Below are positions 2,259-54,100 of a stretch of 64,000 nucleotides of DNA, piece after piece. The stretch covers positions 73,943 to 137,942 of the forward strand of contig DXJO01000008.1 of the NCBI GenBank assembly GCA_019057475.1, given 5' to 3'. This DNA comes from Candidatus Thorarchaeota archaeon (GTDB lineage Archaea; Asgardarchaeota; Thorarchaeia; Thorarchaeales; Thorarchaeaceae). The notes under the pieces were generated by a model that worked only from the letters and a program-made list of their open reading frames with translations, ran no database searches and was not told the origin of the DNA. Within the stretch, counting starts at the first letter, position 1; each line of letters opens with the position of its first letter. The position numbers and the translations under genes are program-made.

Positions 2259-2286
2259 CCACAACATTCACATTCAAGTTTGCTGA

Positions 2287-2380: not shown

Positions 2381-3010
2381 GCGGAAAGAGGGCTGTAAAC
2401 AGCTGCTGCAAAGTTGGACATATCTGGACAATTTCATTGTGGGCTTCATATAGACCAATTCGACATTGATCTCCGAGGAATATGACACACCTGTGAAGGT
2501 TCCTCACGGAGTAGTCCAGTGCTGTTTTCTGGACGTACTAGACTTCGGTGTCAAACTTTGTACAACCTACAATGAACGGTTCGTATGGAGGGAAGGTATC
2601 GCGTGTAACGGGAGGAAAAAAGAGCCCGCCAACCCGCGCCACTGTCCATGCATGCCTGTGAGGCCATTTAAGCATCCATGAAAAACCACGGGGAGCGCAA
2701 GAGCAAGGTCAGACGCAACAGATCTACACAATGCATGGAGCCCCCGGCGAGTGCGGTGTCAAGCAGCTGGTCGAACTGTGAAAGATAATGCTTCAAGTGT
2801 CACTCATTCGCTTTTCCCAGCCAAGTCCTGCCAAGAGCAGTTCACAAAATCGGGACGATACACGATAAATCGAACAGATACAACGAAGATTCGATTATAT
2901 TATTTCATGGTAAATCGTTATATGCCTGTTCAGTCAGCTGCTTTCAGAGTCGCCCCAGCAGAAAATTGCAAGGGAATAACACTGCGACGAGGGCTGGATA
3001 TCCAAGCTGA

Positions 3011-10247: not shown

Positions 10248-10307
10248 GACCGGAGTGGGCGCCGCAAGTCCGGTCAGGAATTAGTCATTACGAACTACGA
10301 CCCTCAG
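10248..10307 (+). pseudogene. Dam C-terminal remnant immediately upstream of Dam paralog 2
   Basis: The translation DRSGRRKSGQELVITNYDPQ mirrors the Dam1 C-terminus RNRGGKRKYGNELVITNYDHE and the Dam2 C-terminus KMGQELIISNY. It lies in frame upstream of the real Dam2 start. Confidence 0.4.
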
Positions 10308-10373
10308 ATAACTGTGGAAGAAACCACGACCCACACAGGGGGTGACGCCATTCATTCTGAAATCACCACAAGA

Positions 10374-11755: not shown

Positions 11756-13015
11756 CTACACCCGTTTGAGGATAACTAAGTGCTCTGTAGCCATTCTGCT
11801 GTCCGCATAGCCCGATGCCGGGTTAACTTCTGATTTGAACATGGATCGCGAAACTATCGGGTCTACGTAAGTGACAAGATGCTTCCAGCCCATTTCCGTG
11901 AGATGTTCAACCAAAATCTCATCAATGGGGATTGATCTTGTCCTAATCTTGGCAGGCCCAACGAATATGCACATGTAGTCATTGACTCTCTCTCCAAGAG
12001 TCGCGAATGCATTTATTGTTCCATGGAAGTACCTGTCATACAGCTGGACAAGGTGGTCCTCAACTATCTCCTTTCTGTAAGCTTGATACTTCTCAGAGTG
12101 AATGTGAATCTCGTCAACAGAGTTGTACGGGAGTTCTTTCTTGCTCAACGATCTCACGTATTCCTCATTATGCCCCAGCCAGAAGAGTTCGAGCTTCGTC
12201 GACCTGATGTACTCCTGAGCTTGCAGGTAGGGCGGAGATGTAATGAGAATATCCACATCTCTGTCTAGCTCGGTGTTGAGGGAATCAATCCCTGATCTCA
12301 GCTTGTGCTTCACCGGTTGAGGATTGAGATTGCTGTGTTCCTTCATCTTGTTGAGGAGTTTCTCAATCTGCTTTTCCAGCATGCTGTAGAACTCGGTTTC
12401 CCAATCTGTCCCCAGCAGCCGCTCTACCTTCTTCTTCGAGTGTCTGGATTTGTACAGCTTGTGCACCTTCTCATCACTGTATGAGAAGTATCTGGTTGCC
12501 TTCAGAAGAGGAATCGAGAGCATTTTCTTCGTCTTGCCCTTTGTTGCATGAACTAGTCCCCATGCCTTTGAGATAGTTGGGAGAAACTCTTCCGGGAACC
12601 AATACGTCAGGTTTGACCAGTCAGGAATGAATTCATGGTCAGAATTGCGCACTCTGGCAACTAGTTCTTGAACGTTGATTTTTGGGGCTTTCATGACTGC
12701 AGTGTCATGGAATAGGTTCATTATGGGATTCAGGTCCCAGAGCTCGTAGTCATGACCGTATACCCTTGACACAACGCCAACTGTGCCATAACCCGCAAAG
12801 GGATCGAACACGACTGACCCTGGTTCCGCGTATTTCTTCAGAGTGTAGGCGATAACCTGAGGGATGAACTTGGCTGGGTACTTGTAGATGGAGAAGGTTC
12901 CATAGGTCGTCTTGGGAATCTCTGGGACCGAGTTCCTGAACACCACGTCGACTCTCGGAGCAGCATCCTGATTGGATTGCGTGGTTCCGTTGGATGGTGT
13001 TCTGCCTTTGCTCAT
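11756..13015 (-). CDS. DNA methyltransferase, N4/N6 (N-4/N-6 methylase domain), alpha-like motif order
   Basis: Motif I VFDPFAGYGTVG lies near the N-terminus. Motif IV ITSPPYLQAQEY lies about 195 aa downstream, leaving room for a TRD in between. Confidence 0.75.
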   Translation of the reverse strand: MSKGRTPSNGTTQSNQDAAPRVDVVFRNSVPEIPKTTYGTFSIYKYPAKFIPQVIAYTLKKYAEPGSVVFDPFAGYGTVGVVSRVYGHDYELWDLNPIMNLFHDTAVMKAPKINVQELVARVRNSDHEFIPDWSNLTYWFPEEFLPTISKAWGLVHATKGKTKKMLSIPLLKATRYFSYSDEKVHKLYKSRHSKKKVERLLGTDWETEFYSMLEKQIEKLLNKMKEHSNLNPQPVKHKLRSGIDSLNTELDRDVDILITSPPYLQAQEYIRSTKLELFWLGHNEEYVRSLSKKELPYNSVDEIHIHSEKYQAYRKEIVEDHLVQLYDRYFHGTINAFATLGERVNDYMCIFVGPAKIRTRSIPIDEILVEHLTEMGWKHLVTYVDPIVSRSMFKSEVNPASGYADSRMATEHLVILKRV

Positions 13016-30952: not shown

Positions 30953-31588
30953 TTACTGTGCCAGTTCTCCGATGAACTGCTTGGCAACTGCGACCGCACT
31001 GGTGGCATCCTTGCCAAACGCGTCAGCACCCGTGTAGTCAACGGTTTCTTGGTTGGTGTTTCCTCCGCCTATCATAACCTTGACATCGTTCCTGATTCCA
31101 GCTGTTCTAAGGGCCTCGATTGTTATCTTCATTGAGTCATGAGCCACAGTAATGAGTCCACTGAGCGCGAGAATCCGTGCACCGGTTTCATTCAGTTTCT
31201 CAATGAACTTCTCAGAAGGCACGTTTTCACCAAGATCATGGACCTCGAAACCGTTGGACTTCAAAAAGGCAATAACCAGGTTCTTGCCAACATCATGCAC
31301 ATCGCCCTTTACAGTTCCAATCACGATTTTCCCTATTGCGCTCCCTTTCTGTTTCTCAAGCAGCTTGGGTTCCACGAATGTCATGGCTTTCTTGAACAGC
31401 TCTGCTGACAGGATGAGCTCTACAAGGAAATACTCGTTATTGGCAAACCTTGCTCCAACGATATCCATTCCTTGCCTTAGCCAATCTAGTATTTGTGCTG
31501 GGTCAGTGCCCGCGTCCAGCTGTTCCTTGACAATGTCTAGGAGCTTCTCCTCTTCTAGATCGCCCACGGCATCAATGAGGTTTTTCAT
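30953..31588 (-). CDS. Corrinoid (B12)-binding protein of methyltransferase systems (MtaC/MtbC-like)
   Basis: A helical B12-binding_2 N-terminus, then a Rossmann B12 domain with DxHxxG (GDVHDVGKNLV), SGL and GGG motifs. Confidence 0.8.
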   Translation of the reverse strand: MKNLIDAVGDLEEEKLLDIVKEQLDAGTDPAQILDWLRQGMDIVGARFANNEYFLVELILSAELFKKAMTFVEPKLLEKQKGSAIGKIVIGTVKGDVHDVGKNLVIAFLKSNGFEVHDLGENVPSEKFIEKLNETGARILALSGLITVAHDSMKITIEALRTAGIRNDVKVMIGGGNTNQETVDYTGADAFGKDATSAVAVAKQFIGELAQ

Positions 31589-31647
31589 CGTGATTCACTC
31601 ACAGGTTTCCCTCGAATCGAGCCCCCGCATAAATATGTCCCGAAAAG

Positions 31648-33261
31648 TCAGTCGTGGACTGATTCAAGTATGGTTGCTTGAGCGAAAATATCAGCGAAGT
31701 TGTCGTGAGTAGCAAGCTCGTAGTAGTTTATCTTCCTTCTCAATTGCTCAATCACCCCGCGGCTTCTCCTGGATACCAGTAACCTCTTTGCTCCTTCTCC
31801 TGCGGCGTTACCCACCGCGATAATCCTCTCAAGGTCGACCGGGGGAAAGAGGCTAATCCGCAGCGCGCTAGACGGGTCGATGTAGTTCCCGAATGCTCCC
31901 GCGAGATAAATCGCCTTGATGTCCTCAGTACGGACATTCGCAACCTGCATCAAAATTTGGGTTCCTGCTAGAATGGCTCCCTTTGCTAGTTGAACCTGTC
32001 GAACATCTCTCTGCGTAAACATGATTCTGCTCTTAGATGCGTGTTCTCCAGCACCTACGACGAGATAGGCTAGCCCCGCTTTGGTGTCATCCACTACCCT
32101 TGCTGATGCTTTCATCCTCCCACCAGCATCAACTAGTCCGTTTCTCAGCAGTTCTGCTACGGTATCCACAATGGCAGAGCCGCACAGTCCTCTAGGTGCA
32201 CCGCCGCCAATCACTGAGATTTCAGGGGCATCGTCAATCTCTCGAATTGTTAAGTGCTCAATCGCACCATCTTGGCCTCTCATGCCGTGACTGATTGTCG
32301 CTCCTTCGAAAGCGGACCCAGCAGCTGCGGAGCAACAGAACAATTCGCCTCTCTTAGAAAGCACGATTTCACCATTCGTTCCTATATCGATGCCGAGGAC
32401 GACATCATCAGCAAGGTCTAATCTTTGGGACAGAATGAAAGCAAGTGTATCGCTTCCGACAAAACCCGCTACGTTCGGGGCGAAGTATACCTCTGCGTCC
32501 GGAGTGGATTTGAGGCCGATTTTTCTCCCATTGCTTGTGAACGCATCCCGCATCTGCGGCTCATAGGGGGCTAGGCCCAATGATGAGGTATCTAGACCCA
32601 AAGCGAGATGATGCATTGCCGTGTTGCCTACCACGACCAATCTCGATAGCTTGTTTGAGGGCACTCCAGACTCATTGCAGAGCATAGTACTTAGTTCGTC
32701 AATCTTATCCAGTACTCTCTGCTTAAGGAGGGTTCTGCCTTTCTCATCTTTCATAGCGTACGCTATTCGTGACATCACATCTTCGCCGAATATGACCTGA
32801 GGGTTGAGGTCCGCAGAGTTCGCAATCTGGTTGCCTTTGCTCAGGTCAAGCAGATATGCAACTATTGTTGTGGTTCCTAAGTCGACCGCGATGCCAAATT
32901 CTCCTTCATGTCCTTCATCCAGAGCGAAATCGCTTGTTGAAGAGACCCCACTTGCTAGTATTTTAGCAGCAGTGGATGTGTGAGGAATGACTGCCCTTGT
33001 GTCAAAACTGATTCGATGCTGACAGGCAAGTCGCACACCCACGTCGATGTCATGTTCTCCAATGAGTTGGGTTTCCACACGTGTGGGGGCAGTTGCAGGG
33101 TTGAGTATGATACGACATTTCCCGCACGTTCCTCGGCCTCCGCACTCCGAGGAAACTTGGAGTCCTACCATCCGTATCGCTTCGAGAATTGTAGTCTGCT
33201 CGCCTATGGCTATGCGAAGTCCCGATGGTTCAAGGATAAGGACGTGCTCTCGCAAGTGCAT
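31648..33261 (-). CDS. RACo-type reductive activator of corrinoid protein (2Fe-2S ferredoxin + ASKHA ATPase)
   Basis: An N-terminal plant-type ferredoxin (CGGRGTCGKCR...C) is followed by an ASKHA-fold domain. 537 aa. Confidence 0.75.
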   Translation of the reverse strand: MHLREHVLILEPSGLRIAIGEQTTILEAIRMVGLQVSSECGGRGTCGKCRIILNPATAPTRVETQLIGEHDIDVGVRLACQHRISFDTRAVIPHTSTAAKILASGVSSTSDFALDEGHEGEFGIAVDLGTTTIVAYLLDLSKGNQIANSADLNPQVIFGEDVMSRIAYAMKDEKGRTLLKQRVLDKIDELSTMLCNESGVPSNKLSRLVVVGNTAMHHLALGLDTSSLGLAPYEPQMRDAFTSNGRKIGLKSTPDAEVYFAPNVAGFVGSDTLAFILSQRLDLADDVVLGIDIGTNGEIVLSKRGELFCCSAAAGSAFEGATISHGMRGQDGAIEHLTIREIDDAPEISVIGGGAPRGLCGSAIVDTVAELLRNGLVDAGGRMKASARVVDDTKAGLAYLVVGAGEHASKSRIMFTQRDVRQVQLAKGAILAGTQILMQVANVRTEDIKAIYLAGAFGNYIDPSSALRISLFPPVDLERIIAVGNAAGEGAKRLLVSRRSRGVIEQLRRKINYYELATHDNFADIFAQATILESVHD

Positions 33262-33266
33262 GACTC

Positions 33267-34217
33267 CTAAGCGATTCGATACCGTGGATGCTGGCGGTCC
33301 ACGCGCGTTCTTGTTTCAAGCAGCACTCCTGATAGGGCAACGTCAATCATCGCCACTGATGGGAACACAATGGGTGCATGTTTGATAGGTCCATAGAGCA
33401 CAAAGTCGGCTCCAAGTGTTACTGGCATTAAACTCGATCCTACAAGAGCTGGTTTCTTTGCATCTTTCCCAAATTTCGGAACCAAGCCCCTCCAAGTGTT
33501 CACAGCATTATGTGCACCGCATCCCACCGGCACGCCGAACTTGTCCTTTATCATATGCTGCGCTTTGCATGCAAGGCCAAGTGTCAACAGATCGATGACT
33601 CCCGTATCGATGATAACATTCTCAATTCCTGCCTTGGTTGTTTTGTCTAGGAGCATTTCCGCGAGATCCAACCGCTTCGTAGCTGATGCCATCGCGGCGT
33701 TAGAGAAGGTCAGTCCCACTGCATGCTTCACGCCAAGTTCATGGAACGATTCCAACGCTTCCATGCTTGTGTCTGGTGTAATGGAATTCAGCATCACTCT
33801 GTCTAGGAATCCACCTTCGCGAGCCGCTTGGACCCCTGCAAGATTTACTTCTTCAGAACCGGACCCGTCAACCAGCAGAGGCATATCTGTGACGTCTACA
33901 AGGTGCAGCAGATGCTTCTCAATCGCTTTGGGGGACTCTGCGACGACATCGAGCATGCTTGGCAGTCCAGTAGCACTGGACGCGTCCACTAACGCATTCA
34001 GCAGCGCTTCTGCACTGGGCACATCAATAGTGCCCTCTTTCGCATTCTTGACAAGTTTATCTCCCGAGTGGAAGATGGAGCCTATGAGAACGGTGGGGTT
34101 GATGCCAGGCTTTCCTCCTATCCTCATGTTGTCAATCTCAAGAACTCTTTGCTCTGCTGTGTATTCAAACATCTGATCAGCACCCAAGGCTGCACGCTGG
34201 CTCATAGCTGCCTTCAA
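33267..34217 (-). CDS. MtrH-family methyl-corrinoid:tetrahydropterin methyltransferase
   Basis: Aligns by eye along its length with MtrH, for example GADFVLYGPIKHAPIVFPSVAMIDV against MtrH GGDFVLYGPIENAEMAFPACAMADI. Confidence 0.8.
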   Translation of the reverse strand: MKAAMSQRAALGADQMFEYTAEQRVLEIDNMRIGGKPGINPTVLIGSIFHSGDKLVKNAKEGTIDVPSAEALLNALVDASSATGLPSMLDVVAESPKAIEKHLLHLVDVTDMPLLVDGSGSEEVNLAGVQAAREGGFLDRVMLNSITPDTSMEALESFHELGVKHAVGLTFSNAAMASATKRLDLAEMLLDKTTKAGIENVIIDTGVIDLLTLGLACKAQHMIKDKFGVPVGCGAHNAVNTWRGLVPKFGKDAKKPALVGSSLMPVTLGADFVLYGPIKHAPIVFPSVAMIDVALSGVLLETRTRVDRQHPRYRIA

Positions 34218-34322
34218 GTTCTGACGGTATCTCCGCTCAATAACCTTTTGCGAAGTAGAGCTAGGCGCTATGGATAGGTATCATCGCAAGTACCCATGCA
34301 TTAATCAGACGAATTTCCGACG

Positions 34323-35705
34323 GTGCCATCACTAAAAGGATGGGTCCTCGTGCTGGCGGTAAAAGAGTCATGCAATCCTTCCGAGTGCAACCTGGAGTGC
34401 GTTGAAGCGTGTCAAGGTGTACAGGGAGACGGTGCGCCCCTTACGATATCGAAAGAAACAGGCCATCCAAGCATTCGTTATGGCGGGTGTACGGCATGCC
34501 TGTTGTGCGTGCGAGCATGCCCTCTCAATGCAATTGAAATCGAGGGATCCACTGCCGGTGCTGCTCGCGCAATGAAACGTAGGAACCGCACCAAGCCGAA
34601 GCCAGCCGCCAAACAGGCCTATGAGGTGACTGATGATTTCGCCAGGTTCTCCGAGGCAGATATGATATTTGCCAGGGCATGGAATGATCCAGAATTCAAG
34701 CACTATAAGAGGAGCGAATGGGATGGGGCAAAGGCTGCGATGCAAAGTGGTCTTCCTGGGTATAGCCGAGCCTACTACGAGCTGGCGCGGGCTGGATGGG
34801 AGCTGTACAATCATCGGACATCTATGATGAACCCCTTGGCTGATCTTGAGGGAGATGGCTCGAGTTTTGCAAATGAACGCACATTCGACTCCGACTTGCT
34901 TACGAGGATGATGAAGAAGGCAGCTCATTTCTTTGGAGCTAGTCTTGTTGGGATTGCATCTCTAGACCATCGGTGGTTGTATTCTGCCAGTCGTAGAGGT
35001 GTAGAGTACTCCATACCTGACAGCATAGATCACGCAGTCGTCATGGCAATTGCAATGGATTACGACGCCATAGCAACCTCACCGACATTCATCAGCTCGG
35101 CTGCGACTGCTCTTGGGTACTCCACAATGGCATTCGTTGAAATCGAGCTGGCTGCCTTCATTCGCAGGCTTGGATATCGAGCGATACCCTGCGGGAATGA
35201 TATCGCTCTGAGTGTGCCTTTAGCTATTGATGCAGGTCTCGGACAATACGGACGGCATGGTCTTCTGATTACAAAGGAGTTCGGTTCACGAGTGCGTATT
35301 GCCAAGGTGCTAACGGACATGCCCCTTCTTCCAGATAGTCCTGACTTGGACTTCTACAACTCCGTGACTCGTTTCTGCGAAGTATGTGAGAAATGCGCAG
35401 AGCACTGTCCCAGTCAATCCATCCCTTATGGAAGAGAACGCACTTGGCATGGTGAGTGCAGGTCCAATAACCCCGGTGTCAAGAAGTGGTACGTGGATGT
35501 GGAGTCATGCTATGGTTTCTGGGTGCAGAATGGCGCTGAGTGTTCGAACTGCATCCGAAGCTGTCCTTACGACAAACGCGATGGGCCTGCACTCAGGATT
35601 CTTCTCTGGCTTACGCGTCATATGCCTAGGCTCAACTCCCTGGTTGTGAAATTGGACGATTTGCTAGGCTACGGAAAGCAGCGTCTTCCGAAAGATATGC
35701 TCTAA
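34323..35705 (+). CDS. Reductive dehalogenase-like protein (RdhA/QueG superfamily) with N-terminal ferredoxin-like Cys motifs, no Tat signal
   Basis: The C-terminus has CEVCEKCAEHCP (CxxCxxCxxxCP) and CSNCIRSCP (CxxCxxxCP). The N-terminus has CNPSECNLECVEAC plus CTACLLCVRACP. No RRxFLK twin-arginine leader. Confidence 0.55.
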   Translation: MPSLKGWVLVLAVKESCNPSECNLECVEACQGVQGDGAPLTISKETGHPSIRYGGCTACLLCVRACPLNAIEIEGSTAGAARAMKRRNRTKPKPAAKQAYEVTDDFARFSEADMIFARAWNDPEFKHYKRSEWDGAKAAMQSGLPGYSRAYYELARAGWELYNHRTSMMNPLADLEGDGSSFANERTFDSDLLTRMMKKAAHFFGASLVGIASLDHRWLYSASRRGVEYSIPDSIDHAVVMAIAMDYDAIATSPTFISSAATALGYSTMAFVEIELAAFIRRLGYRAIPCGNDIALSVPLAIDAGLGQYGRHGLLITKEFGSRVRIAKVLTDMPLLPDSPDLDFYNSVTRFCEVCEKCAEHCPSQSIPYGRERTWHGECRSNNPGVKKWYVDVESCYGFWVQNGAECSNCIRSCPYDKRDGPALRILLWLTRHMPRLNSLVVKLDDLLGYGKQRLPKDML

Positions 35706-35706
35706 A

Positions 35707-36015
35707 CTACTTGGTGCTTCTAGAGATTCTTTGGTAAAGGCCCTCAAAGAAATCTCCCTTGCGAATCTTACCCTTGTTGATTGCAAAGAAGTTTGTCTTT
35801 ATGCGATATAGCTTTGGCTTGAGATTGTCGTAATTCCGAATTCCCCTTCCGTCAATGCTATCGTCAAAAATCTTGGTGACGTACTCTGGGAAGTTATCGA
35901 TGTACTGGCATTGATTGAGCTGGATATGGAACAGGGTGCTTCGTAGTATCTCTGCTCGACTAATATTCCGCGTTGCCATTGCTTGGTCCCACCGTATTAT
36001 CGATGGTGCTGCCAA
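35707..36015 (-). CDS. Hypothetical small protein
   Basis: 102-aa ORF in an otherwise empty gap. No motif recognised. Confidence 0.2.
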   Translation of the reverse strand: MAAPSIIRWDQAMATRNISRAEILRSTLFHIQLNQCQYIDNFPEYVTKIFDDSIDGRGIRNYDNLKPKLYRIKTNFFAINKGKIRKGDFFEGLYQRISRSTK

Positions 36016-36107
36016 TTAAGAGTTCTAGTAAGACAAACCGCCTTCGAGCATTGGCATACGGTTATCAGGCACGAATAGTCACCGGTTCGTGGAAGCGTGG
36101 CAGAAAC

Positions 36108-36803
36108 ATGCGGATTGCATCCATCATTGATATCAGTCTTGTAGATGTGCCCAAGATTCCAGTAACGGTGATATTCACAGCAGGATGCAATTTCGACTGC
36201 TCATACTGTCAAAACGCTGAACTCATTCCGCTCTCATCAGGCGAGAGCATGGCGATACCTGATATTGTAGCTCATGCACGCGGTCATCTTGTAGATGGTT
36301 ATTGTGTAACTGGTGGGGAACCCACAATACACAAGGATCTCCCGGAGTTGTTGAAAGCCCTCAAAGAAGACTGCGACGGTCACATCAATCTCAATACGCA
36401 GGGGTCAGTTCCGTCCGTGCTAGAGAGGTCTCTACCCTATATTGACTCGGTCTGGTTTGACATGAAGGCAAGCCCTACTCGATATGTAGAAACCGCAAGA
36501 ACATCTTCCGATCCATGGCCGAGGGTCCAGCAGAGTCTAGAGATGCTCCTAGATTCTGAGGTTCTTTTTTGGCCTCGCACAACGTATGTTGGAAACCTAA
36601 CAACACCTGACGACATAAAGGCGATTCTTGCAAAATTGCATGAACTTGGATTCAGAGGTGAGTATCTAGTTCAGAATTACATCGATTCGGCAGGCACGCG
36701 AGATGAAGAGGTAGCAGCCTTTGAGAAACCGAATCGTGAGGAGATTGAACCGCTGCTTTCTAGCCTTCCCTCTGGAATTTCGATGCGGCTTGAGTGGAGA
36801 TGA
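36108..36803 (+). CDS. Radical SAM activating enzyme (NrdG/QueE-like, COG0602 type)
   Basis: FTAGCNFDCSYCQN (CxxxCxxC) and VTGGEPTIH. The ATG at 36108 is the probable start. Confidence 0.7.
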   Translation: MRIASIIDISLVDVPKIPVTVIFTAGCNFDCSYCQNAELIPLSSGESMAIPDIVAHARGHLVDGYCVTGGEPTIHKDLPELLKALKEDCDGHINLNTQGSVPSVLERSLPYIDSVWFDMKASPTRYVETARTSSDPWPRVQQSLEMLLDSEVLFWPRTTYVGNLTTPDDIKAILAKLHELGFRGEYLVQNYIDSAGTRDEEVAAFEKPNREEIEPLLSSLPSGISMRLEWR

Positions 36804-36954: not shown

Positions 36955-37692
36955 ATGTTCCCGACACAGTCACTAGGCTACGACCGTGCAATTACAGTAT
37001 TCAGTCCCGAAGGACGCCTATACCAAGTTGAATACGCTACAGAAGCAGTCCGTCACGGGCCGCTTGCAGTTGGTGTAAAGGCTACTGATGGTGTTGTCTT
37101 GGTTGGTGAGAAGCGTTCTCCGCACCCCCTGGTTGATTTGACCACATTGAAGAAACTCCTTCTTATCGACGATCATGTTGGAACGGCAATTGCAGGGCTG
37201 CATGCTGATGCTAGGAAGCTCATTGATCAGGCTAGAGTTCAGGCACAAATCAATAGACTCAGTTATGACGAACCGGTGTCGATACAATCACTAGTTGTTA
37301 ATGTCTGTGACACTAAACAGCTTCATACACAATATGGTGGAGTCCGACCATTCGGAGTGGCACTTCTGGTCGCTGGCGTAGATGACCTCGGCCCCCAGCT
37401 ATTCAGCACTGATCCTTCTGGATCCTACTGGGGTTGGAAGGCAACCGCAATAGGCAAGGATTCGGACGTGGTACGTGAGTTCTTCGCTGAGAAGTACAAA
37501 CCAGACATCAATCTAGATGGTGCACTCAAGTTGGCAATAGAAGGCGTCCTCACGCCTGGCAGCGACAAGACTGTATCTGACCCAGCTGAGAAGGCAAAGA
37601 CCATAGAGATTGGTCGGGTTGACACCACTAAGCGTGAATTCAAGATATTGCCGCAAGATGAGGTCGAGGCCATTCTCGCAGCTTTCGCTTAG
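36955..37692 (+). CDS. psmA: 20S proteasome alpha subunit
   Basis: YDRAITVFSPEGRLYQVEYA and YGGVRPFGVALLVAG closely match archaeal PsmA. Confidence 0.9.
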   Translation: MFPTQSLGYDRAITVFSPEGRLYQVEYATEAVRHGPLAVGVKATDGVVLVGEKRSPHPLVDLTTLKKLLLIDDHVGTAIAGLHADARKLIDQARVQAQINRLSYDEPVSIQSLVVNVCDTKQLHTQYGGVRPFGVALLVAGVDDLGPQLFSTDPSGSYWGWKATAIGKDSDVVREFFAEKYKPDINLDGALKLAIEGVLTPGSDKTVSDPAEKAKTIEIGRVDTTKREFKILPQDEVEAILAAFA

Positions 37693-37724: not shown

Positions 37725-38600
37725 CTAAGTGCCTTTTGATTTCTTCACCAGTAGATCGACAATCATCCCAGCTATATCGAGATTTGTGACCCTTGACAAT
37801 GCACTCCAGGATGGCGAAGCATTGGCTTCTATAACACAAGGGCCATCTTTTGATTCCAGGATGTCGACACCTGTATAGTCGAGCTTCAACACCTCTGCGG
37901 TCTTGATGGCACACTCTGTGTACTCGTCATCGAGTTCCACAGCTTCTGCCTCGGCTCCTCCGTGTATGTTGCTTCGCCACTCCCCCTTTGGCACATTGCG
38001 GTACATTGCAGCCACAAGCTGATTATCTATGACAAATGCTCTAATGTCGCGGTCAGGTTTCTCAATCATTTCTTGAACGTAGAGCACCTGTCCAAGCTGG
38101 TGAATAAATTTCAGTGCACGGTAGGTTAGTTCTTGGTTCTCCGCTCGAATCATGCCCATGCCACGCGCTCCGATTAGAGGTTTGATGATTACATCCCCTA
38201 CCTCCTCGGAGAATGCTGTAGCGGCCTCTAGGTTCTCACTCACATGCGTGCGTGGCACTCTGATGCCCGCCTTGTGCAGGGCAGTAAGAGTGGCATACTT
38301 GTCCTTAGCGCGTCGGAACGAGTAGGCTGGATTCATCACGTAGATTCCGGCATCTTCGAGATGTTCAAGGAGGCTTATTCGGTATGTAATTTGATTGCCG
38401 GTGCCAAACCCAATGGTCCTCACGATGGCACCATCCAGTGTAAGGTCCTCTTCGAGGTGTACGAACCCATGAGGAATCTCAGCTGCAACGTCTAGTAGTC
38501 GAAAGGGTTTCACATCATGGCCTTTGGCTTTCATTGCATCAATCAGTCCTTTCGTAGCCCAGTTGTTGACGTTCTCGTGGTAGCTTATTCCGAACCGCAT
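37725..38600 (-). CDS. ATP-grasp ligase, RimK/LysX family
   Basis: Pre-ATP-grasp and ATP-grasp segments (VIIKPLIGARGMGM). Start taken at MRFGISYH (38600), which leaves a divergent intergenic region before YjeF_N. Confidence 0.65.
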   Translation of the reverse strand: MRFGISYHENVNNWATKGLIDAMKAKGHDVKPFRLLDVAAEIPHGFVHLEEDLTLDGAIVRTIGFGTGNQITYRISLLEHLEDAGIYVMNPAYSFRRAKDKYATLTALHKAGIRVPRTHVSENLEAATAFSEEVGDVIIKPLIGARGMGMIRAENQELTYRALKFIHQLGQVLYVQEMIEKPDRDIRAFVIDNQLVAAMYRNVPKGEWRSNIHGGAEAEAVELDDEYTECAIKTAEVLKLDYTGVDILESKDGPCVIEANASPSWSALSRVTNLDIAGMIVDLLVKKSKGT

Positions 38601-38729
38601 TCGAGCGTGGTCTCCCTTTGTTTCAGATGCACATTGCACTAGTAGCTTGGTCCATAAAAACCTGAATGCTTGCACCACAGGTGTAGCCCATGGAAAAAGC
38701 CTAAGTGAACATGCTGCTATCTGCAATCT

Positions 38730-39509
38730 ATGCCCCTCCCCGGACTCACCAAGGAACAGATGGTTGAGGTCGACCGCATCATGGTGAAAGAGCTCCATGT
38801 TCCCGTTGAATTGATGATGGAGCATGCGGGACTGAATCTAGCCCGGTTGGCCATTCGCCTTAGTGGGGTCAAGCCCATTGAGTATCTAGTTGTGGCGGGT
38901 TCGGGAAATAACGGGGGTGGGGGTCTCGCGGCAGCAAGGCGCTTACAAAACTGGAATCTTTCGGTAGAAGTGTGGCTGCCAAAAGGTGAAGACGCCCTCC
39001 GCTCGATACCTATGGAACAGCTAAACCGGGCAAAGGAAGCAGGCGTAACTATCTATGAAGGCGAACCGAAGGCGAGCAAAGGTCCTGAAGTCTGCATCTT
39101 GGACGCTTACGTTGGATATGGCTATTCTAGGAGGAATGACTCCGTGACTAGCGAAGTCTTCAGTTACTTGGCAGAACACTCCAACGTTATATCGCTGGAT
39201 GCTCCGTCGGGACTGGATGTGACTACGGGAGTCAGCGAGAACGGACTGTCACCAAGAGCCACGCTGACACTGGCGTTCCCAAAGATTGGTCTCCTTCGTG
39301 CCCTTGAGAAAACATCAGATGCGCTCTATGTTGCGGATATCGGTGTTCCATCAAGCATCTACAAAGATCGGCTTGGCATTGCGTGGAGTTCGCCATTTGA
39401 TTTGGTGAGCCTCTCCAAGCTGGACCGAGCATTTGCAGAGGACGCTATCCAACAGGTTGAGATCAGTTACGTAGAGGCAGAAGGAGTCCATTTCTGGGAT
39501 ATCAAATGA
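38730..39509 (+). CDS. YjeF N-terminal domain protein (NAD(P)H-hydrate epimerase-like)
   Basis: LVVAGSGNNGGGGLAAARRL is the signature motif. Confidence 0.75.
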   Translation: MPLPGLTKEQMVEVDRIMVKELHVPVELMMEHAGLNLARLAIRLSGVKPIEYLVVAGSGNNGGGGLAAARRLQNWNLSVEVWLPKGEDALRSIPMEQLNRAKEAGVTIYEGEPKASKGPEVCILDAYVGYGYSRRNDSVTSEVFSYLAEHSNVISLDAPSGLDVTTGVSENGLSPRATLTLAFPKIGLLRALEKTSDALYVADIGVPSSIYKDRLGIAWSSPFDLVSLSKLDRAFAEDAIQQVEISYVEAEGVHFWDIK

Positions 39510-40690: not shown

Positions 40691-40789
40691 TCCCAAAGAT
40701 TGGCCTCCTTCTAAGGTTACTACTTAATAGGAAATCAGATTCCTGAATTTGAATGCGGGAGGTTATTGATAGTGTCAACAAAGGATAAG

Positions 40790-43700
40790 ATGCGCCCACA
40801 ATTTTCACATAATGATGCTGTCAGACTAGCCAAGACGATATATGGTATTGATTGTGCTGCAAGGGAATTGCCAAGTGAACGTGATAGAAACTTTCTGCTC
40901 ATTACTAAAACCAATGAGAAATACGTGATGAAAATTTCCGCAACCTCTGAATCCCGAGATGTCATTGATTGTCAAAATGCCGCGTTGCAGCATATCCAAG
41001 AGGTTGATGAATCAATAGCGATTCCAAGAATAATTCATTCTCTTAATGGAGAATTTGTTCCGCTTATTTCGACCGAAGTGGGACATGAGCATTTCATAAG
41101 ACTATTGACATATCTCCCGGGACGAGTATTCGCGAAAATTAATCCGCATACTATGAAACTGATGGAAGATTTCGGAAAATTCATGGGGTCCCTTTCTAGG
41201 GCATTAGAGAGCTTTTCGCACCCTGCTGCTAATCGCGACTTCTACTGGGATTTGAAAAACTCACCTCAAATGATTGTTGAATATAGAGAATTGATTAGTG
41301 ACAAGAAGAAAAGGGAAATTTCAGACTATTTCTACAATCTATTCGATCAAGAAGTAGTACCCCATATCCGAGAATTAAGGTCAAGTATAGTGCATAATGA
41401 CGCAAACGATTACAATGTGGTCGTTGATACAAATTGGACTAATGATTCGAGAAAACTCGGAATTTTTGATTTTGGTGACATGTTGTTTACTTGCACAATA
41501 TTTGAGCTAGCAATTGCTACTGCGTACGCAATATTAGACCATGATGATCCAGTAATGGCTGCAGCTGCAATGATTAAGGGGTATCACTCAGTATTTCCAC
41601 TAACAGAACTAGAAATGAAAGTTCTATTTCCAGCTATATGTGCAAGATTACTATCTAGTGTTTGTGTATCAGCATACCAGCAGTTTCTGGAACCAGAGAA
41701 TGAATACTTGGCGATAACTGAAACTCCCGCATGGCGGACTCTCAGCAGACTTAGAAAAATGCATCCTAAACACGTTTGGTACATCTTCAGAGATGCATGT
41801 GGATTTCCGCCAAACCCAGAAAACCCGAGAATAGTAAAATGGATAACCGATAATGAAAGTCACTTTGGCAATGTTCTGACTAAAAGCATGGAAGAATACA
41901 AGTCCGTAGTAATTGACCTAAGTGTCGGTAGTCTAGATTTCGAGTATCCTGAGGATGTCGTGGTTTTTAAAAGATTTTCTAGAATAATACAGAATAAGAT
42001 GGACGACCACAAGGCAGAGATTGCTTTTGGTCGATACGATGAAAGTCGTCTTATCTACACCGGTGACCAATATTCAGAGAATGAAGATCTCGTACAGAAT
42101 TCAAGAGTAACCCATCTTGGTATTGATATCTTTTCACCACCTAAAACTCCCATTTTCGCACCTCTAGATGGTATCGTTCATTCACTGAAAAACAATGACA
42201 TTCCATTAGATAATGGACCAACTATTATCCTTGAACATAACCCCACTTCAGATACTAAGTTCTATACACTCTATGGACATCTAAGTCTGGACTCAATTAA
42301 CGGACTAATAATTGGACAGAAAATAAGTAAAGGAGATGAAATTGCGCGCATAGGGGATTACCCTAAGAATGGTGGATGGCCTCCACATTTACATTTTCAA
42401 ATAATCACAGATATGTTGGACGTGGAGGGGAATTACAATGGAGCTTGTGGGGTAAATCAACGTGATGTTTGGCGAAGCATTTGTCCTGATCCAAATTTGA
42501 TTCTAAAGATTCCAGAAGATAAGTTTCCAGACCCTCTCCTAACTAAACAAGAGATATTACAGACTAGACAGGAGTATATTGGACCAAATCTGAGTGTTTC
42601 CTATAAAGAGCCATTGAAGATTGTAAGAGGATACATGCAGTACTTGTATGATGAAGATGGAAAGAGATACCTTGACGCAGTGAATAATGTTCCCCACGTC
42701 GGTCATTCAAATCCAAATGTGGTTAAAGCTCTACAGAAACAAGCAGCTGCACTTTATACAAATACTAGATACTTGCATGATAACCTTGTTAGGTATGCGG
42801 AGAAACTTATTGAAAAAACGCCAGAACCACTTAGTGTCTGTTATTTCGTGAATAGTGGAAGTGAAGCAAACGAACTTGCATTGAGATTAGCTAGAACACA
42901 TACTCAGCGAGATGGAATTATCATTGTGGATGATGCGTATCATGGAAACACCGATACCTTAGTCGATCTTAGTCCATACAAACACAAAGGACCCGGAGGA
43001 CGTGAACCACCCACACATGTAGTCTCAGTTTTCAAAGCAGATCCATTCAGAGGGAAGTTTGGTTCTGATGACTCCAAGGCCGGAGAGAAATACGCTTCTT
43101 ATATCAAAGATTTTGCTATACCAAGGTTGGAAGAAAGCGGTCATCCTGTAGCTGCATTCATTTGCGAACCCGTTATGAGTTGTGCAGGACAAATCGTATT
43201 TCCAAAGGGATACCTAAAGAAAGCCTATGAGCACGTAAGAAATGCGGGAGGCGTGTGCATAGCAGATGAAGTGCAGATTGGATTCGGTAGAGTTGGAAGT
43301 CATTTCTGGGGGTTTGAAACACAAGGAGCCATACCGGATATTGTAACTATGGGTAAACCAATAGGAAACGGACATCCATTAGCAGCTGTTGTTACAACCC
43401 CAGAGATAGCAAAATCATTCGACAATGGAATGGAATTCTTCAGCACTACGGGTGGAAACACTGTTTCATGTGCAGTTGGACTAGCTGTTCTTAATGAGAT
43501 CGAATCAAAGAACTTGCAGGAGAATGCATTCTCTGTTGGAAAACATATGAAAGAAAAACTGCTCGATCTGAAAAAGAAATACCCTCTCATTGGAGATGTA
43601 AGAGGTCTCGGACTGTTTCTTGGTGTTGAACTAGTAAAAGACCAGGAAGAATTGTTTGAACCAGCAGCAGAAGAAGCAACATATATTGTCAATAGGATGA

Positions 43701-43855
43701 AAGAACTTGGAGTATTAATTAGTGTGGATGGATATCTTCGTAATGTCCTCAAGATCAAACCCCCAATCATATTCTCCAATGAGGATGTAGATTATTTTAT
43801 TGAACGTCTGGAAACCGTTCTTAACGAAGATTTTCCGAGCGGTATTATAGAATAA
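40790..43855 (+). CDS. Tri-domain fusion: aminoglycoside/hydroxylysine-kinase-like phosphotransferase (APH) - M23 peptidase - class III aminotransferase (AGXT2-like, possible phospho-lyase)
   Basis: APH-type N-terminus (HNDANDYNVVVD, FDFGD). M23 (HLGIDIF...DGIV...YTLYGHLS...GGWPPHLHFQI). Class-III aminotransferase (DDAYHGNTD, ICEPVMSCAGQI, DEVQIGFGRVGSHFWGFE, TMGKPIGNGHPLAAV with the PLP Lys). Markedly AT-richer than its flanks. Confidence 0.8.
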   Translation: MRPQFSHNDAVRLAKTIYGIDCAARELPSERDRNFLLITKTNEKYVMKISATSESRDVIDCQNAALQHIQEVDESIAIPRIIHSLNGEFVPLISTEVGHEHFIRLLTYLPGRVFAKINPHTMKLMEDFGKFMGSLSRALESFSHPAANRDFYWDLKNSPQMIVEYRELISDKKKREISDYFYNLFDQEVVPHIRELRSSIVHNDANDYNVVVDTNWTNDSRKLGIFDFGDMLFTCTIFELAIATAYAILDHDDPVMAAAAMIKGYHSVFPLTELEMKVLFPAICARLLSSVCVSAYQQFLEPENEYLAITETPAWRTLSRLRKMHPKHVWYIFRDACGFPPNPENPRIVKWITDNESHFGNVLTKSMEEYKSVVIDLSVGSLDFEYPEDVVVFKRFSRIIQNKMDDHKAEIAFGRYDESRLIYTGDQYSENEDLVQNSRVTHLGIDIFSPPKTPIFAPLDGIVHSLKNNDIPLDNGPTIILEHNPTSDTKFYTLYGHLSLDSINGLIIGQKISKGDEIARIGDYPKNGGWPPHLHFQIITDMLDVEGNYNGACGVNQRDVWRSICPDPNLILKIPEDKFPDPLLTKQEILQTRQEYIGPNLSVSYKEPLKIVRGYMQYLYDEDGKRYLDAVNNVPHVGHSNPNVVKALQKQAAALYTNTRYLHDNLVRYAEKLIEKTPEPLSVCYFVNSGSEANELALRLARTHTQRDGIIIVDDAYHGNTDTLVDLSPYKHKGPGGREPPTHVVSVFKADPFRGKFGSDDSKAGEKYASYIKDFAIPRLEESGHPVAAFICEPVMSCAGQIVFPKGYLKKAYEHVRNAGGVCIADEVQIGFGRVGSHFWGFETQGAIPDIVTMGKPIGNGHPLAAVVTTPEIAKSFDNGMEFFSTTGGNTVSCAVGLAVLNEIESKNLQENAFSVGKHMKEKLLDLKKKYPLIGDVRGLGLFLGVELVKDQEELFEPAAEEATYIVNRMKELGVLISVDGYLRNVLKIKPPIIFSNEDVDYFIERLETVLNEDFPSGIIE

Positions 43856-49090: not shown

Positions 49091-50122
49091 ATGTCCACCC
49101 TAAAAGACGCAGCATCTAACAAGCTTGAAGAAAAAGTTGACAAACTGGCAGAGAGTCTAGCCACGATTGTCAACGAGCTAAAAGTGCTTTCTTCTGTCAA
49201 GGACATGGCCAAGAAGATGGGCGCGCTAGAAGCAGAAGTCAATGACATTAAGACGGCACTAGATCCATTGTCCAAGATTGATGATTTGCTCGCCTCAGTC
49301 AATGGCATCGACAAGAATGTCGTTGGGATTGTCGAGTCAAGGGAGTACGAGGTCGTTCTGAAGAAAATTGATGATCTTCTGGTGTCCTCTCAAGACTTGG
49401 ATGCGGGACTAGCAGAGATTAGGAACTCCAATGCCTTGAGTGAGCTTGGAAAGAAGGTGGAGGCGGTGTCAAGCTCGGTGTCAGACATTAGCAAGAACAT
49501 CGAGTTCACTCGCGCAGGGCGCAGTCTCGAAACGCTGGAAACCAAGATTGATGACCTTCAGCAGTATGTCGCTGGTCTCTCATCGCTGGAAAGCAGCATT
49601 CAGGACCTCTCCGGGACATTTGATGAAACCCGTGAGATAGTCAGTATTATCGTGCGACAGTTGGATGACATTGAGCGCAAATACAACAAGTCAGTTGAAG
49701 AGATTCGCAAGGTTGTTGAAGATGTTTCACAGGTGACCCGTACGGTTAGTGAAGATCCATCTGCAATCAAGACAACTAAGAAAACCGCGAAGACTACAAA
49801 GCGCAAGGAAATTGAAAAGAAGACTCCGCCTGCGGCTGAGGAGATAGTACTCCCTGGCACAATCGATGGAATCATGAAGCATCTTCTGGAAAAGGTATCC
49901 CCTGCAACTGAGGCTGTTGAGATGGCCAACGCATTGGAGACCGTTCGGGACCAATTGACCACGATGATTACTGGCGGTACCCCTGTCTTGTTCCAGTTCG
50001 GCAAGAGAGCGAGGGAGCTCAAATCGTACCCACCAACCGCAACTTTGAACGAGAATGACATTGCTCGACTCAACAGTGAAATCCGCAACTGGTCAACCAA
50101 GCTAAAGGAAGTTACCAAATAG
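49091..50122 (+). CDS. Hypothetical coiled-coil protein
   Basis: 343 aa, helical, with a Lys/Thr-rich linker. Confidence 0.4.
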   Translation: MSTLKDAASNKLEEKVDKLAESLATIVNELKVLSSVKDMAKKMGALEAEVNDIKTALDPLSKIDDLLASVNGIDKNVVGIVESREYEVVLKKIDDLLVSSQDLDAGLAEIRNSNALSELGKKVEAVSSSVSDISKNIEFTRAGRSLETLETKIDDLQQYVAGLSSLESSIQDLSGTFDETREIVSIIVRQLDDIERKYNKSVEEIRKVVEDVSQVTRTVSEDPSAIKTTKKTAKTTKRKEIEKKTPPAAEEIVLPGTIDGIMKHLLEKVSPATEAVEMANALETVRDQLTTMITGGTPVLFQFGKRARELKSYPPTATLNENDIARLNSEIRNWSTKLKEVTK

Positions 50123-51196: not shown

Positions 51197-54100
51197 TTGG
51201 ACTGTCATTGGATGGGATGCAATTTGACTGAGAATGCAGTTGTAGAATATATGCCTGTCTTGAAGGCGAATCTAGGTCTAACAGACCTTGAAGCCAAGGT
51301 TATGCTGCCCATTTACTTGGGCGGGAACATGACACCTGGCGCCGTCGCCATGATTTCGGGCGAGAAACTTCCCAGAGTGAATCGCACTCTGGGTAGATTA
51401 GAAAGTAAAGGATTTGTCGTTAAGGTCGAGGGTGTAGTGCCTATTTTCAGACCAGTTCCGGCAGTACTCTCCATGACTGGTGAGCTCAATTCTATGGTTG
51501 AGAATATCGAGGGATTGGCGCATGCCTCTCTCAGTGCATTGGACAACCAGATACAGCAAACTGAGGAGTCGGCTGTTGAGATTAGGGACACGCAAACCAC
51601 AGCAAGTGAGCGCACAAGGACAATCCTAGAGAATTACGAAAACAAAATGCTTCAAACCGTGCTGAGTCAGGTAGAGCTAGTCGTCGATACTGCGACCAAT
51701 GTCTTGACTGGGTACTCACAGAAAATCGAAGAAGCAGTGACAGGGCTGGACACGAGTCTGGATGACGCTCTGGGGATAAAGCTGGCGGACCTTCAAGCTG
51801 AACTGGATAAAAGCCAGATACAACTCAAGCAGGACCTCAAGGTGATATCCCGCGACTTTGACAAGGGCGTCAAACGGGAACGTGCGCCCTCACTAACTGC
51901 ACTATCGGATTTCGATAAGAAAGTCCAAGCGCTCATCAAGAAGTCAAAGAACGCAGTTTCCACTGCACTCACAGACTCAGAAAAAGCAATTCAGAGTGTA
52001 TCCCTTGATGTGTCCCAGAAGACAAGCTCACAGGTTCTTGGCACCATTGATAAGACTCTTGTAAATCTCGGTTCTTCAGCAGATTCCTTGACTGCATCTC
52101 TCGATCAGTTAGACAAAGATCTCAGTCAAGCATCAAGGGTCGCTCATGACTCACTCACCTCTCTGATAAGTCAAACAAGATTGATGTCGAACGAGCAGGC
52201 GGATCTAACTCGCATAAAGATTCTCAATGCATTCAAGGTCACCGAATCTGCTACTGACGCACTAGATTCCTGGAAAACAGATGTCAGAGGAATCATGGAT
52301 GTTGCATCCCACTCCATGACCGCGCAGTTCGAGCAGGCGGCAGTGACAGAGCGAAACTACCTAGATGCAAACAAGAATACACTTGTAGCCTATCTTGACA
52401 AGATTCGCACCATTGTTAGTGAGGAGTACAGCACTCTCCAGAGCTTGGCAGTGGCGATTGACAGTGAGTTCGCCAAGCATCTCGACGAAACCAAAATATC
52501 GATGATGGGCTTATTCCGCAACGAGCTTGAGGCTGACGAAACAACCCTTGAGGTCGCAACTGAGAAGCTACGCAAAGACTTGAACCGATGGTCAACTAAA
52601 ACGGGGCGGTCAGTTAGAAGGAAAGCGTCGAAGGCTGGCAAAGAGGTGATCGAGGTTCTTGATGGCAAAATTGCTGAAGTAGACACCATGACCGAGAAAA
52701 TGTTCAACGAGGTCAAGTCTTCGCTTGGTGCAGTCACCGCAACGGCGGGCACTAAGAACGAAACAATTCTCACTGCCATTAATAAGAGCGCACAGAAATT
52801 CGAGAAAGATGTTGATGCTAAACTTGGGGGTGTCACTACACGTTTTTCCTCGATAGCGGACAAGTACGTCACTGGAGCGGGAGTGCTCTATGAAAATCTA
52901 AATACAAGATTCGACGACCGAGTCAGTCAGTCAGTCAAGTCCTTGAGTTCGAGCGTAGAGCGAGCACGACAAGAGATTGACACCATGATGGAAGACCAGA
53001 TGACCAGAATTGATTTCCATGCCTCTGAGATTCGAAAGGAGTTCCACATGCAGGTTGAGGATATCTCAAGGCAGTTCATTAACATGACTCAAGGATTGGA
53101 AGCTGCTTTCGGAGGGCTTGTGGCGAGTCAGATAGTCGAAACACGCGATTTCATCGCATCCACACACACCGAGTTCAATGCAGCTCTGAATGCTGAGATG
53201 AATGCTCTTCGAGATGATTCCGAGAAGCTCCAAGTCGGGTATTCCTCAGAGATGACTCAACGCATAGAGAATCTCCGAGATTCGGCGAGTGTAATGCGCA
53301 AGACCCTAGAAGAGCTTGCCAAGGAGAAACGGCTGGAGATGTCCTCCTCCATAGCGGGCACGCTAACTCAGCTTGAAAGTGCGACAAATGAAATACAGAA
53401 ATCGCTTGAGAGCCTCGAAACAGATACGATTAAGGAAATCAATGATGACCTAGCAGAGTTCTCCGAGGAATTCACAGAGGCTCTTACGACGGCCAAGACG
53501 AACCTCACTGATCAGCTTTCAAATCTCAGTGAAGCAACTACAACCGACCTGGAGCGGGGAACAAAGCTTGTCAGGGACATAGCAGACTCTTACTTCACGG
53601 AGCACATGGATTCCCATCAGAGGCTTATCGCAAGCACGAGCAAAAAACTAGATTCACTCTCAACTGCCATAACTACAGGATCATCCCGTAAGGTTGAGGC
53701 GTTTCAAGCGAATCTTGCGAAGTCTGAGAAGACTGGACTACGTGGAAGGAATGCTGTGAAGACCGAGATAGCGGAAGCAATAGAGAACCATAGGACAGAA
53801 GCCAGTCAGGCGTTTGAGGGGGCTGCTGCGCGGGTTGATTCCGGTCTATCGAACACAGCTGATTCTATTACAATACTTGGTGACAAGCTCAACAACGACT
53901 TGATGGCGGTTCAGCAGCAAATCGCCCGGGCAGCCAACGATGCCGCGAAGCTTCTCGCAGAGAAGAGCCGCGAAAATTTAGAAATACTTGAAGAAACGGG
54001 AGTTTCGCTCTTCCAGAAGGCGGAGGATACTTTCCGGGAGCACGCTGTAACCTTTGGCAACACAAGTGCTGCCGCATTAAAACAAGGTGAGGATAGCATG

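Follow-up and report, generated by a model that had tools for sequence, protein, structure and literature searches.

The window analysed here is a stretch of 64,000 nucleotides from a Candidatus Thorarchaeota archaeon (contig DXJO01000008.1). Near its middle, a minus-strand operon encoding three proteins of corrinoid-dependent methyl transfer lies back to back with a plus-strand gene for a homologue of reductive dehalogenases (RdhA). A first-pass annotation had suggested that the arrangement might constitute one pathway sharing a single corrinoid activation system, or else a tRNA modification system related to QueG. The features at the locus, in window coordinates and with protein lengths in amino acids (aa), are the following:

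30953-31588, minus strand: corrinoid (cobalamin-binding) protein, 211 aa, last gene of the operon
31648-33261, minus strand: RACo-type protein, a predicted ATP-dependent reductive activator, 537 aa, middle gene of the operon
33267-34172, minus strand: soluble MtrH-family protein, a predicted methyl-corrinoid:pterin methyltransferase in the role of second methyltransferase (MT2), 301 aa, first gene of the operon
34173-34349: divergent intergenic region between the likely MtrH-like and RdhA starts
34323-35705, plus strand: RdhA-like open reading frame (ORF), 460 aa at its maximal extent and 451 aa from GTG 34350
34350-34547, plus strand: di-cluster ferredoxin domain of the RdhA-like protein, residues 1-66, delimited by cysteine motifs and ABCE1/RLI matches
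34617-35705, plus strand: PceA-type catalytic domain of the RdhA-like protein, residues ~90-451, delimited by TIGR02486, PceA matches and fold

Searches with Pfam and NCBIfam profiles and against PDB sequences confirmed, at these positions, the three identities proposed at first pass for the minus-strand operon: an MtrH homologue, the activator RACo and a corrinoid protein carrying a DxHxxG motif. The corrinoid protein presents the Pfam domains PF02310 (1.1e-21) and PF02607 (3.8e-16), as well as a DVHDVG sequence that fits the motif. It scores 167 bits with TIGR02370, under the cut-off of 215, and its nearest solved structures (4jgi, 1y80 and MttC, 7xcn_M) are small corrinoid proteins of methyltransferase systems. 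The middle gene encodes a protein with an N-terminal [2Fe-2S] Fer2 domain, a middle domain and a C-terminal ASKHA ATPase domain, in which PF00111, PF17651 and PF14574 all exceed their cut-offs (Raco_middle at 2.9e-53 and RACo_C_ter at 2e-78). This protein matches the RACo of Carboxydothermus hydrogenoformans (PDB 3zyy) at 1.2e-96, and both the AcsV model (365.8 bits, cut-off 800) and the RamA model (145 bits) stay under cut-off. It has the domains that define RACo, and ATP-dependent activation is predicted for it on this basis.

The ORF of the first operon gene runs to 34217, with a likely ATG at 34172 given that its homologues are 301 aa in length. Its product is a clear member of PF02007 (9.6e-67; 225.6 bits, cut-off 22.8), scoring 266 with NF002142 (cut-off 287), 202 bits with the MtgA model and 194.2 bits with the mtrH equivalog model TIGR01114, under the 271.4 cut-off of the latter. 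Its PDB matches (8z9u_B at 5e-63, MtgA 6sj8 at 2e-48 and the Mtr-complex MtrH 9qtp at 9e-42) place it nearer to soluble homologues than to the MtrH of the Mtr complex. The PF02007 assignment and the operon context point to an MtgA/MtoA-type enzyme, predicted to transfer methyl groups to a pterin. Within the operon, 5 bp separate the MtrH-like gene from that of RACo, and 59 bp separate the latter from the corrinoid protein gene. Pfam searches on all window ORFs of at least 150 aa detected no mtrA-G genes. These searches, together with tblastn using MttB, URO-D and MtmB probes, also returned no substrate-specific methyltransferase (MT1) of the MttB, MtmB, URO-D or MtaB kinds, extending to the whole 64-kb window the first-pass observation that none is present in the cluster. 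A complete system of MT1, corrinoid protein, MT2 and activase is hence not encoded in the window, where the MT1 is absent.

On the opposite strand, the RdhA-like protein probably starts at GTG 34350, because 451 aa is the length both of its homologues and of the database gene call. It scores 217.8 bits with TIGR02486, above the 160.35 cut-off, and yields a partial C-terminal match to Pfam PF13486 (19.5 bits, below 24.3). Searches against PDB sequences matched the PceA proteins of D. restrictus (8q4h, 3.9e-59) and S. multivorans (4uqu, 2.6e-55), and NpRdhA at 6e-28 (4ras). An AlphaFold2 model built on 85 homologues (pLDDT 87.7, pTM 0.80) was compared to known structures with Foldseek, which also returned PceA (8q4h_A, E 3e-27, TM 0.65; range among PceA structures 0.61-0.65) and NpRdhA (E 1e-18). 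In a phmmer alignment to 4uqu, the PceA residues Y246, N272 and R305 map to Y257, N283 and R316 of the window protein. Among the 85 homologues, Y257 and N283 never vary, R316 shows at least 90% conservation, and the C-terminal [4Fe-4S] cysteines (C343, C346, C349, C353-P and C387, C398, C401, C405-P) are also invariant. The protein is 50-91% identical to many entries annotated as 'reductive dehalogenase [Candidatus Thorarchaeota archaeon]'.

The same comparisons speak to the suggestion that this protein is an archaeal QueG-like epoxyqueuosine reductase, or another tRNA-modification reductase. QueG does belong to the same superfamily as RdhA, but it is matched at 3.6e-6 (5d6s), as opposed to the 3.9e-59 of PceA, and its fold is remote from that of the model (6e-7, TM 0.29-0.34, with 0.33 to be compared to 0.65 for PceA). 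Although some JGI annotations of homologues read 'epoxyqueuosine reductase', TIGR00276 attains only 49.2 bits for a cut-off of 200, and it is the PceA-type Tyr/Asn/Arg set that is conserved. Housekeeping genes, such as those for the proteasome alpha subunit and RimK, are found nearby, yet the RdhA-like gene has been lost in close relatives, and queuosine is a bacterial and eukaryotic modification. The QueG reading is excluded on these grounds, and a tRNA-modification role for this protein is most improbable.

No Tat or Sec signal was detected in the RdhA-like protein. It has no N-terminal RRxFxK motif, and its first cysteine lies only 7 residues in, leaving no room for either signal; no RdhB-like hydrophobic small ORF adjoins its gene. 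The first-pass description of a cytoplasmic protein devoid of a Tat leader is thus upheld, and the Tat signal and adjacent rdhB that identify respiratory RdhA proteins are both missing. The protein also departs from the catabolic NpRdhA/BhbA type, given its stronger match to PceA, its length of 451 aa and the lack of a flavin or 2Fe-2S reductase domain. These features identify it as a cytoplasmic RdhA homologue of the PceA clade, with dehalogenation as its predicted activity.

The N-terminal region of this protein harbors two cysteine motifs, C8-x4-C13-x3-C17-x3-C21 and C47-x2-C50-x2-C53-x3-C57-P, in which all eight cysteines are invariant among the 85 homologues. They correspond to the extra N-terminal cysteine cluster noted at first pass. 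The closest sequence relatives of the N-terminal domain are the Fe-S domains of ABCE1/RLI, with NF009945 matched at 2.1e-10 and the ABCE1 Fe-S domains in PDB 6tmf, 3j15 and 3bk7 matching residues 6-64 at 3e-5 to 5e-5. A disordered linker rich in Lys and Arg (residues 67-86) joins the ferredoxin and catalytic domains; model pLDDT is 80-87 in the N-terminal domain and below 50 in the linker.

The genomic context of RdhA was surveyed in one genome per GTDB species, yielding 80 loci that were annotated by tblastn with the window proteins; together with a second survey centred on MtrH, about 170 related loci were compared (designated here by L numbers). Thorarchaeota RdhA orthologues (50-92% identical) occupy a rigid block, in which genes for a dCache/TPR/VWA protein, a beta-propeller protein and an HDAC homologue are followed by a variable slot, RdhA, a PAS histidine kinase in some cases, a 90-aa ORF, a radical SAM (rSAM) protein, proteasome alpha and RimK. 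The content of the slot upstream of RdhA was scored in 43 evaluable orthologous loci (at least 50% identity, window and L001 included), where CoP denotes the corrinoid protein:

MtrH directly upstream of RdhA: 14/43 loci, with the complete CoP-RACo-MtrH triad on every contig of sufficient length
CoP-RACo upstream of RdhA: 4/43 loci
RACo alone upstream of RdhA: 9/43 loci, sometimes with a DNA methylase also there
CoP-RACo-UROD-MttB-CoP2 upstream of RdhA: 1/43 loci (L001)
No corrinoid gene, HDAC abutting RdhA: 7/43 loci (L003, L012, L019, L020, L029, L043, L050)
Unrelated neighbours, HDAC backbone absent: 8/43 loci (lipoate ligase (LplA) and FAD oxidoreductase, acyl-CoA dehydrogenase, PAS or LRR proteins)

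The divergent arrangement with MtrH directly upstream is hence present in 14 of these loci, the window included, and the remainder present other corrinoid genes or none. More distant Asgard orthologues of RdhA have metallo-beta-lactamase neighbours upstream, and no corrinoid genes were found near RdhA homologues devoid of the N-terminal domain (Planctomycetota, Bathyarchaeia, Thermoplasmatota). In a neighbour-joining tree of RdhA the slot states group by clade, with the empty state arising at least 3-4 times. The beta-propeller, HDAC and rSAM-PsmA-RimK genes on either side vary less than the corrinoid cassette, which is the least conserved part of a synteny block that is rigid elsewhere. A divergent corrinoid protein was considered as a possible occupant of the 950-bp gap in RACo-only loci, but the gap holds an N6/N4 DNA methylase. 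In one orthologue (L038:9980-11335) RdhA is split into ORFs of 269 and 180 aa, the result of a frameshift, a pseudogene or an assembly error.

The MtrH-centred survey revealed that the methyl-transfer genes are also found away from RdhA. The top 120 homologues of the MtrH-like protein are all from Thorarchaeota, and MtrH is on its own in many loci. In the closed genome CP070761 (L085), a CoP-MtmB-MtrH-RACo module lies next to genes for an aldehyde:ferredoxin oxidoreductase and a peptide ABC transporter, and RdhA was not found within 8 kb; the MtmB homologue of this module, whose frame is free of internal stop codons, reaches 319 bits on PF05369. L086 and L093-L099 have the MtrH-RACo-CoP triad, but no RdhA, beside NurA/HerA/Mre11/Rad50 genes, and MtrH-like genes that are more distant are associated with MtmB, MttB or URO-D-type genes and corrinoid proteins. 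A 437-aa protein next to the L086 triad was examined as a hidden MT1 and discarded: it sits in a cluster of DUF87/HerA, Mre11 and Rad50 genes, which makes NurA its probable identity, and the window encodes no homologue of it. The survey also brought up a second group of Thorarchaeota MtrH-like proteins (L084, L105-L122), 56-61% identical to that of the window, for which no RACo, corrinoid protein or RdhA was found over distances of up to 8 kb; two small membrane proteins are encoded after the gene in L084. This group may be a paralogue with a different set of partners.

The closest relatives of the window, at 86-92% amino-acid identity, made it possible to follow changes in the slot directly, with break points in the spacer located by blastn against L092, L089, L004 and L001. 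In L092, RdhA is followed, in divergent orientation, by CoP2-MttB-MtrH, and ~2.4 kb carrying CoP2-MttB (non-pyrrolysine, or non-Pyl, MttB; 1286-3815) take the place of a 66-bp stretch of the window (34269-34336). L091 presents MttB-MtrH-RACo, and L001 keeps CoP2-MttB with a URO-D-family gene where MtrH would be. Conversely, RdhA itself has been deleted in L089, a contig ~90% identical to the window that keeps the spacer up to 34329, the MtrH-RACo-CoP operon, the 90-aa ORF and the rSAM gene. The deletion extends from ~20 bp before the start to codon ~422 and leaves MtrH-RACo-CoP intact, with the last 29 RdhA codons still present between the 90-aa ORF and MtrH (L089:2630-2716). L104 likewise lacks RdhA and keeps the cassette. 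Since the slot varies both ways among close relatives, RdhA and the cassette are gained and lost independently, and the RdhA-MtrH slot is a hot spot for the swapping or deletion of MT1, MT2, corrinoid protein and RdhA genes.

We therefore favour, with a probability of roughly 0.75, the interpretation that the locus comprises two independent functional units placed back to back, whose adjacency reflects lineage-specific synteny rather than an obligatory common pathway or a common activase. Their proximity is attributed, with the same confidence, to the synteny of the block and to a slot prone to recombination. The single pathway with common corrinoid activation put forward at first pass is not supported, as RdhA and the triad each occur without the other, an outcome that corresponds to a ground for refutation set at first pass.

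Several observations weigh against this interpretation. At least RACo adjoins RdhA in 28/43 orthologous loci, and divergent transcription from a short spacer is compatible with co-regulation of the two units. The neighbour-joining tree behind the several independent losses carries no support values. Furthermore, dehalogenase activity in this subfamily is attested only at second hand, and only if the Thorarchaeota reductive dehalogenase A0A5C9E7E1 belongs to it: PMC13101508 (2026), citing Ng & Silver 2024, lists that protein among enzymes expressed heterologously in active form.

A rival reading, in line with the idea of the first pass, is a coupling of both units, in which RACo, and perhaps the corrinoid protein, serves RdhA, or in which both units act on one class of substrates. 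Such coupling could take the form of ATP-driven re-reduction of the Co(II) cobamide or of cobamide handling, and the shared substrates could be halomethanes, or else methylated or methoxylated compounds that carry halogens. No neighbour of RdhA is more persistent than RACo, which is its sole corrinoid partner in nine loci, but the RACo-only state is essentially confined to one clade and counts as one event. Seven loci with the same backbone and at least eight other orthologues have no corrinoid gene nearby, RdhA is gone and the cassette kept in L089 and L104, and the triad is found elsewhere without RdhA in L085 and L086. The lack of an obvious dedicated reductase partner for this cytoplasmic RdhA likewise favours coupling; in solved RdhA structures, however, the cobamide is buried and reduced via the Fe-S clusters of the enzyme itself. 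The divergent orientation across a short spacer also fits coupling, yet the MT1s found in the slot are of MttB type, acting on methylamines or quaternary amines and not on halogenated compounds. Taken together, the evidence makes coupling of the two units unlikely. A specific version of it, in which the RACo-RdhA pairing is functional and RACo operates as an ATP-driven re-activator or cobamide partner, with docking or electron entry at the ABCE1-like domain, is very unlikely. In a weaker variant of this version, the two units might jointly process methyl halides or polyhalomethanes: RdhA would remove halogen atoms, and the Co(I) corrinoid protein would take up the methyl group and supply it to MtrH.

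If the two units are independent, as we favour, the operon (30953-34172, minus strand) would provide the carrier, activator and exit half of corrinoid-dependent methylotrophy. A substrate-specific MT1 would methylate the Co(I) of the corrinoid protein, and the MtrH-like enzyme would hand the methyl group to tetrahydromethanopterin (H4MPT) or tetrahydrofolate (H4F) of the Wood-Ljungdahl methyl branch, with RACo drawing on ATP and on its [2Fe-2S] cluster to return to Co(I) any Co(II) formed by accidental oxidation. The absence of an MT1 from the window implies that the triad here either works with one or more MT1s encoded elsewhere or is a reduced remnant. The MT1 of sister genomes is of the non-Pyl MttB family, so the methyl donors are probably methylamines or quaternary amines.

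The second unit (34350-35705, plus strand) would be a cytoplasmic RdhA homologue of the Thorarchaeota type, with a catalytic domain holding a cobamide and two [4Fe-4S] clusters. Electrons from a soluble low-potential donor would enter via the ABCE1-like N-terminal di-cluster domain, which probably lengthens the electron wire and replaces Tat export and the RdhB/quinol route. They would then pass through the two C-terminal clusters to the buried cobamide, which would reduce the bound substrate with Y257 as proton donor, as in PceA.

The nature of that substrate allows for a further reading, compatible with the independence of the two units, in which the protein has the fold and chemistry of RdhA but acts as a cobamide reductase on an endogenous or common sedimentary metabolite that is not an organohalide. 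The gene is always present in one copy per locus, unlike typical rdhA genes, and stays within a conserved chromosomal block even in orthologues that are only ~50-57% identical, a pattern also seen in PMC6737245. An RdhB, a Tat signal and any recognised RdhK/RdhR-type regulator are all lacking, and the usual neighbour of the gene is a PAS histidine kinase. The conservation of the PceA catalytic Tyr/Asn/Arg argues in the other direction, as does the dispensability of the gene in close relatives, and PMC13101508 relays, at second hand, activity of a Thorarchaeota reductive dehalogenase on tetrachloroethene (PCE) and/or triiodophenol in E. coli. We regard a non-organohalide substrate as unlikely.

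The divergent spacer measures 105 bp, as given at first pass, when maximal ORFs are considered, but 145-177 bp when the likely starts are used. In the alignment of related loci, its RdhA-proximal ~60-70 nt are conserved regardless of upstream content. No Rfam element (riboswitch or shared RNA) was detected in the window at gathering thresholds, and no tRNA genes were found in it. A scan for bacterial sigma-70 promoters and terminators, a model that is not applicable to archaea, performed no better than on shuffled sequence. Downstream of RdhA, the window contains the following genes of the synteny block:

35707-35979, minus strand: conserved 90-aa protein, tail-to-tail with RdhA and divergent from the rSAM gene
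36105-36803 (ORF from 35973), plus strand: NrdG2-like radical SAM protein, ~232 aa from its likely ATG, PF04055 at 3.6e-14
36955-37692: proteasome alpha (archaeal), synteny anchor together with the rSAM gene
37725-38825, minus strand: RimK, synteny anchor together with the rSAM gene

The 90-aa ORF was identified by tblastn in 36 related Thorarchaeota loci besides the window (47-94% identity), with the consensus ILRSTLFHIQ..QCQYIDNFPE...KLYRIKTNFF..N...KKDFF.GLYQRI, and is always divergent from the NrdG2-like rSAM gene. Pfam and PDB searches with its product returned no match. Its presence in L089 and L104, both without RdhA, indicates that it is part of the synteny block and not of RdhA function. 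The rSAM gene lies downstream of RdhA in nearly all Thorarchaeota loci. Of the 'NrdG/QueE-like' label that it received at first pass, the NrdG2 part is retained (TIGR02495 126.5, cut-off 131.15) and the QueE part is not (at most 38.7 bits with QueE models, for cut-offs of 206-300); the analysis provided no support for the claim that this rSAM family co-occurs with QueG. In most Thorarchaeota lineages a multi-PAS histidine kinase gene sits directly 3' of RdhA (e.g. L002:9481-11268). It has been lost in the clade of the window, where a single bp now separates the end of RdhA from the stop codon of the convergent 90-aa ORF, and is retained in L104, where RdhA is absent.

Three other regions of the window stood out. 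Between 40001 and 44000 the GC content drops to 0.40-0.42, compared to ~0.49 elsewhere in the window, coinciding with a plus-strand ORF (40766-43855) for a 1029-aa fusion of APH (phosphotransferase), Peptidase_M23 and class-III aminotransferase domains that may have been horizontally acquired. The segment 1443-13015 looks like a restriction-modification or defence-like island: it contains a 1851-aa ORF (3011-8566) with no Pfam match, flanked by D12-class N6-adenine DNA methyltransferases (1443-2258 and 10182-11174) and an N6/N4 methylase (11756-13015). Finally, a plus-strand gene (51197-55111) encodes a 1304-aa protein with an N-terminal TrmB-type helix-turn-helix domain followed by long apolipoprotein-like helical repeats, and a nearby 343-aa ORF (49091-50122) yields similar coiled-coil-type matches.

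Had activation been shared, RACo would have been the first corrinoid activase common to a methyltransferase system and a reductive dehalogenase, and a hint on the role of RdhA in Asgard archaea. The results point instead to a Thorarchaeota RdhA homologue of a published kind lying beside a modular methylotrophy cassette. The missing MT1 finds an explanation in the 2.4-kb segment that holds CoP2-MttB at the same spot in sister genomes, and the volatility of the slot cautions against guilt-by-association annotation in highly syntenic Asgard genomes.

Among known systems, the operon matches parts of the biochemically tested Mto system of Methermicoccus shengliensis, namely MtoA (MtrH-like), MtoC (a corrinoid protein) and MtoD, an activase similar to RACo that has a 2Fe-2S cluster at its N-terminus; in that system the methyl group was transferred to H4F, used as an analogue of H4MPT, but not to coenzyme M (PMC8630106). 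With Mto and the MtgA/MtgB/MtgC system of Desulfitobacterium hafniense it shares a soluble MtrH-family MT2, a DxHxxG corrinoid protein and a RACo-type activase. Unlike both, it has no equivalent of the MT1 proteins MtoB and MtgB in the window, and the MT1s of sister loci are of the MttB family (MtmB family in L085) and not O-demethylases. The window RACo has the same domain order as its C. hydrogenoformans counterpart (3zyy, 4c1n), to which it is strongly similar, but its partner is a small MtbC/MtgC-like corrinoid protein, whereas that of C. hydrogenoformans RACo is CoFeSP. Modules for non-methanogenic methylotrophy, combining MtrH, MttB-like and corrinoid proteins, have been described in other Asgard lineages (PMC11291895).

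The RdhA-like enzyme, in turn, shares with the PceA proteins of S. multivorans (4uqu) and D. restrictus (8q4h) the catalytic sequence and fold, both [4Fe-4S] motifs and the Tyr/Asn/Arg set, and differs from them in its cytoplasmic location, its additional N-terminal di-cluster domain and the lack of a Tat signal, RdhB anchor and quinol route. N-terminal 4Fe-4S domains have been noted in Asgard RdhA-like proteins from cold-seep metagenome-assembled genomes (PMC12219181, 2025). Putative reductive dehalogenases of Thorarchaeota and Lokiarchaeota were reported by Manoharan et al. (2019, mBio, PMC6737245), and the Thorarchaeota proteins in that work present an extra N-terminal 4Fe-4S domain, no Tat signal, no RdhB, the PceA Tyr/Asn/Arg residues and strong synteny. 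The window RdhA has the same architecture, lies in the same synteny block and shows no essential difference from them. To that description the present analysis adds the relationship of the N-terminal domain, with its eight invariant cysteines, to ABCE1/RLI, the variability of the adjoining corrinoid cassette and the deletion of RdhA in some relatives.

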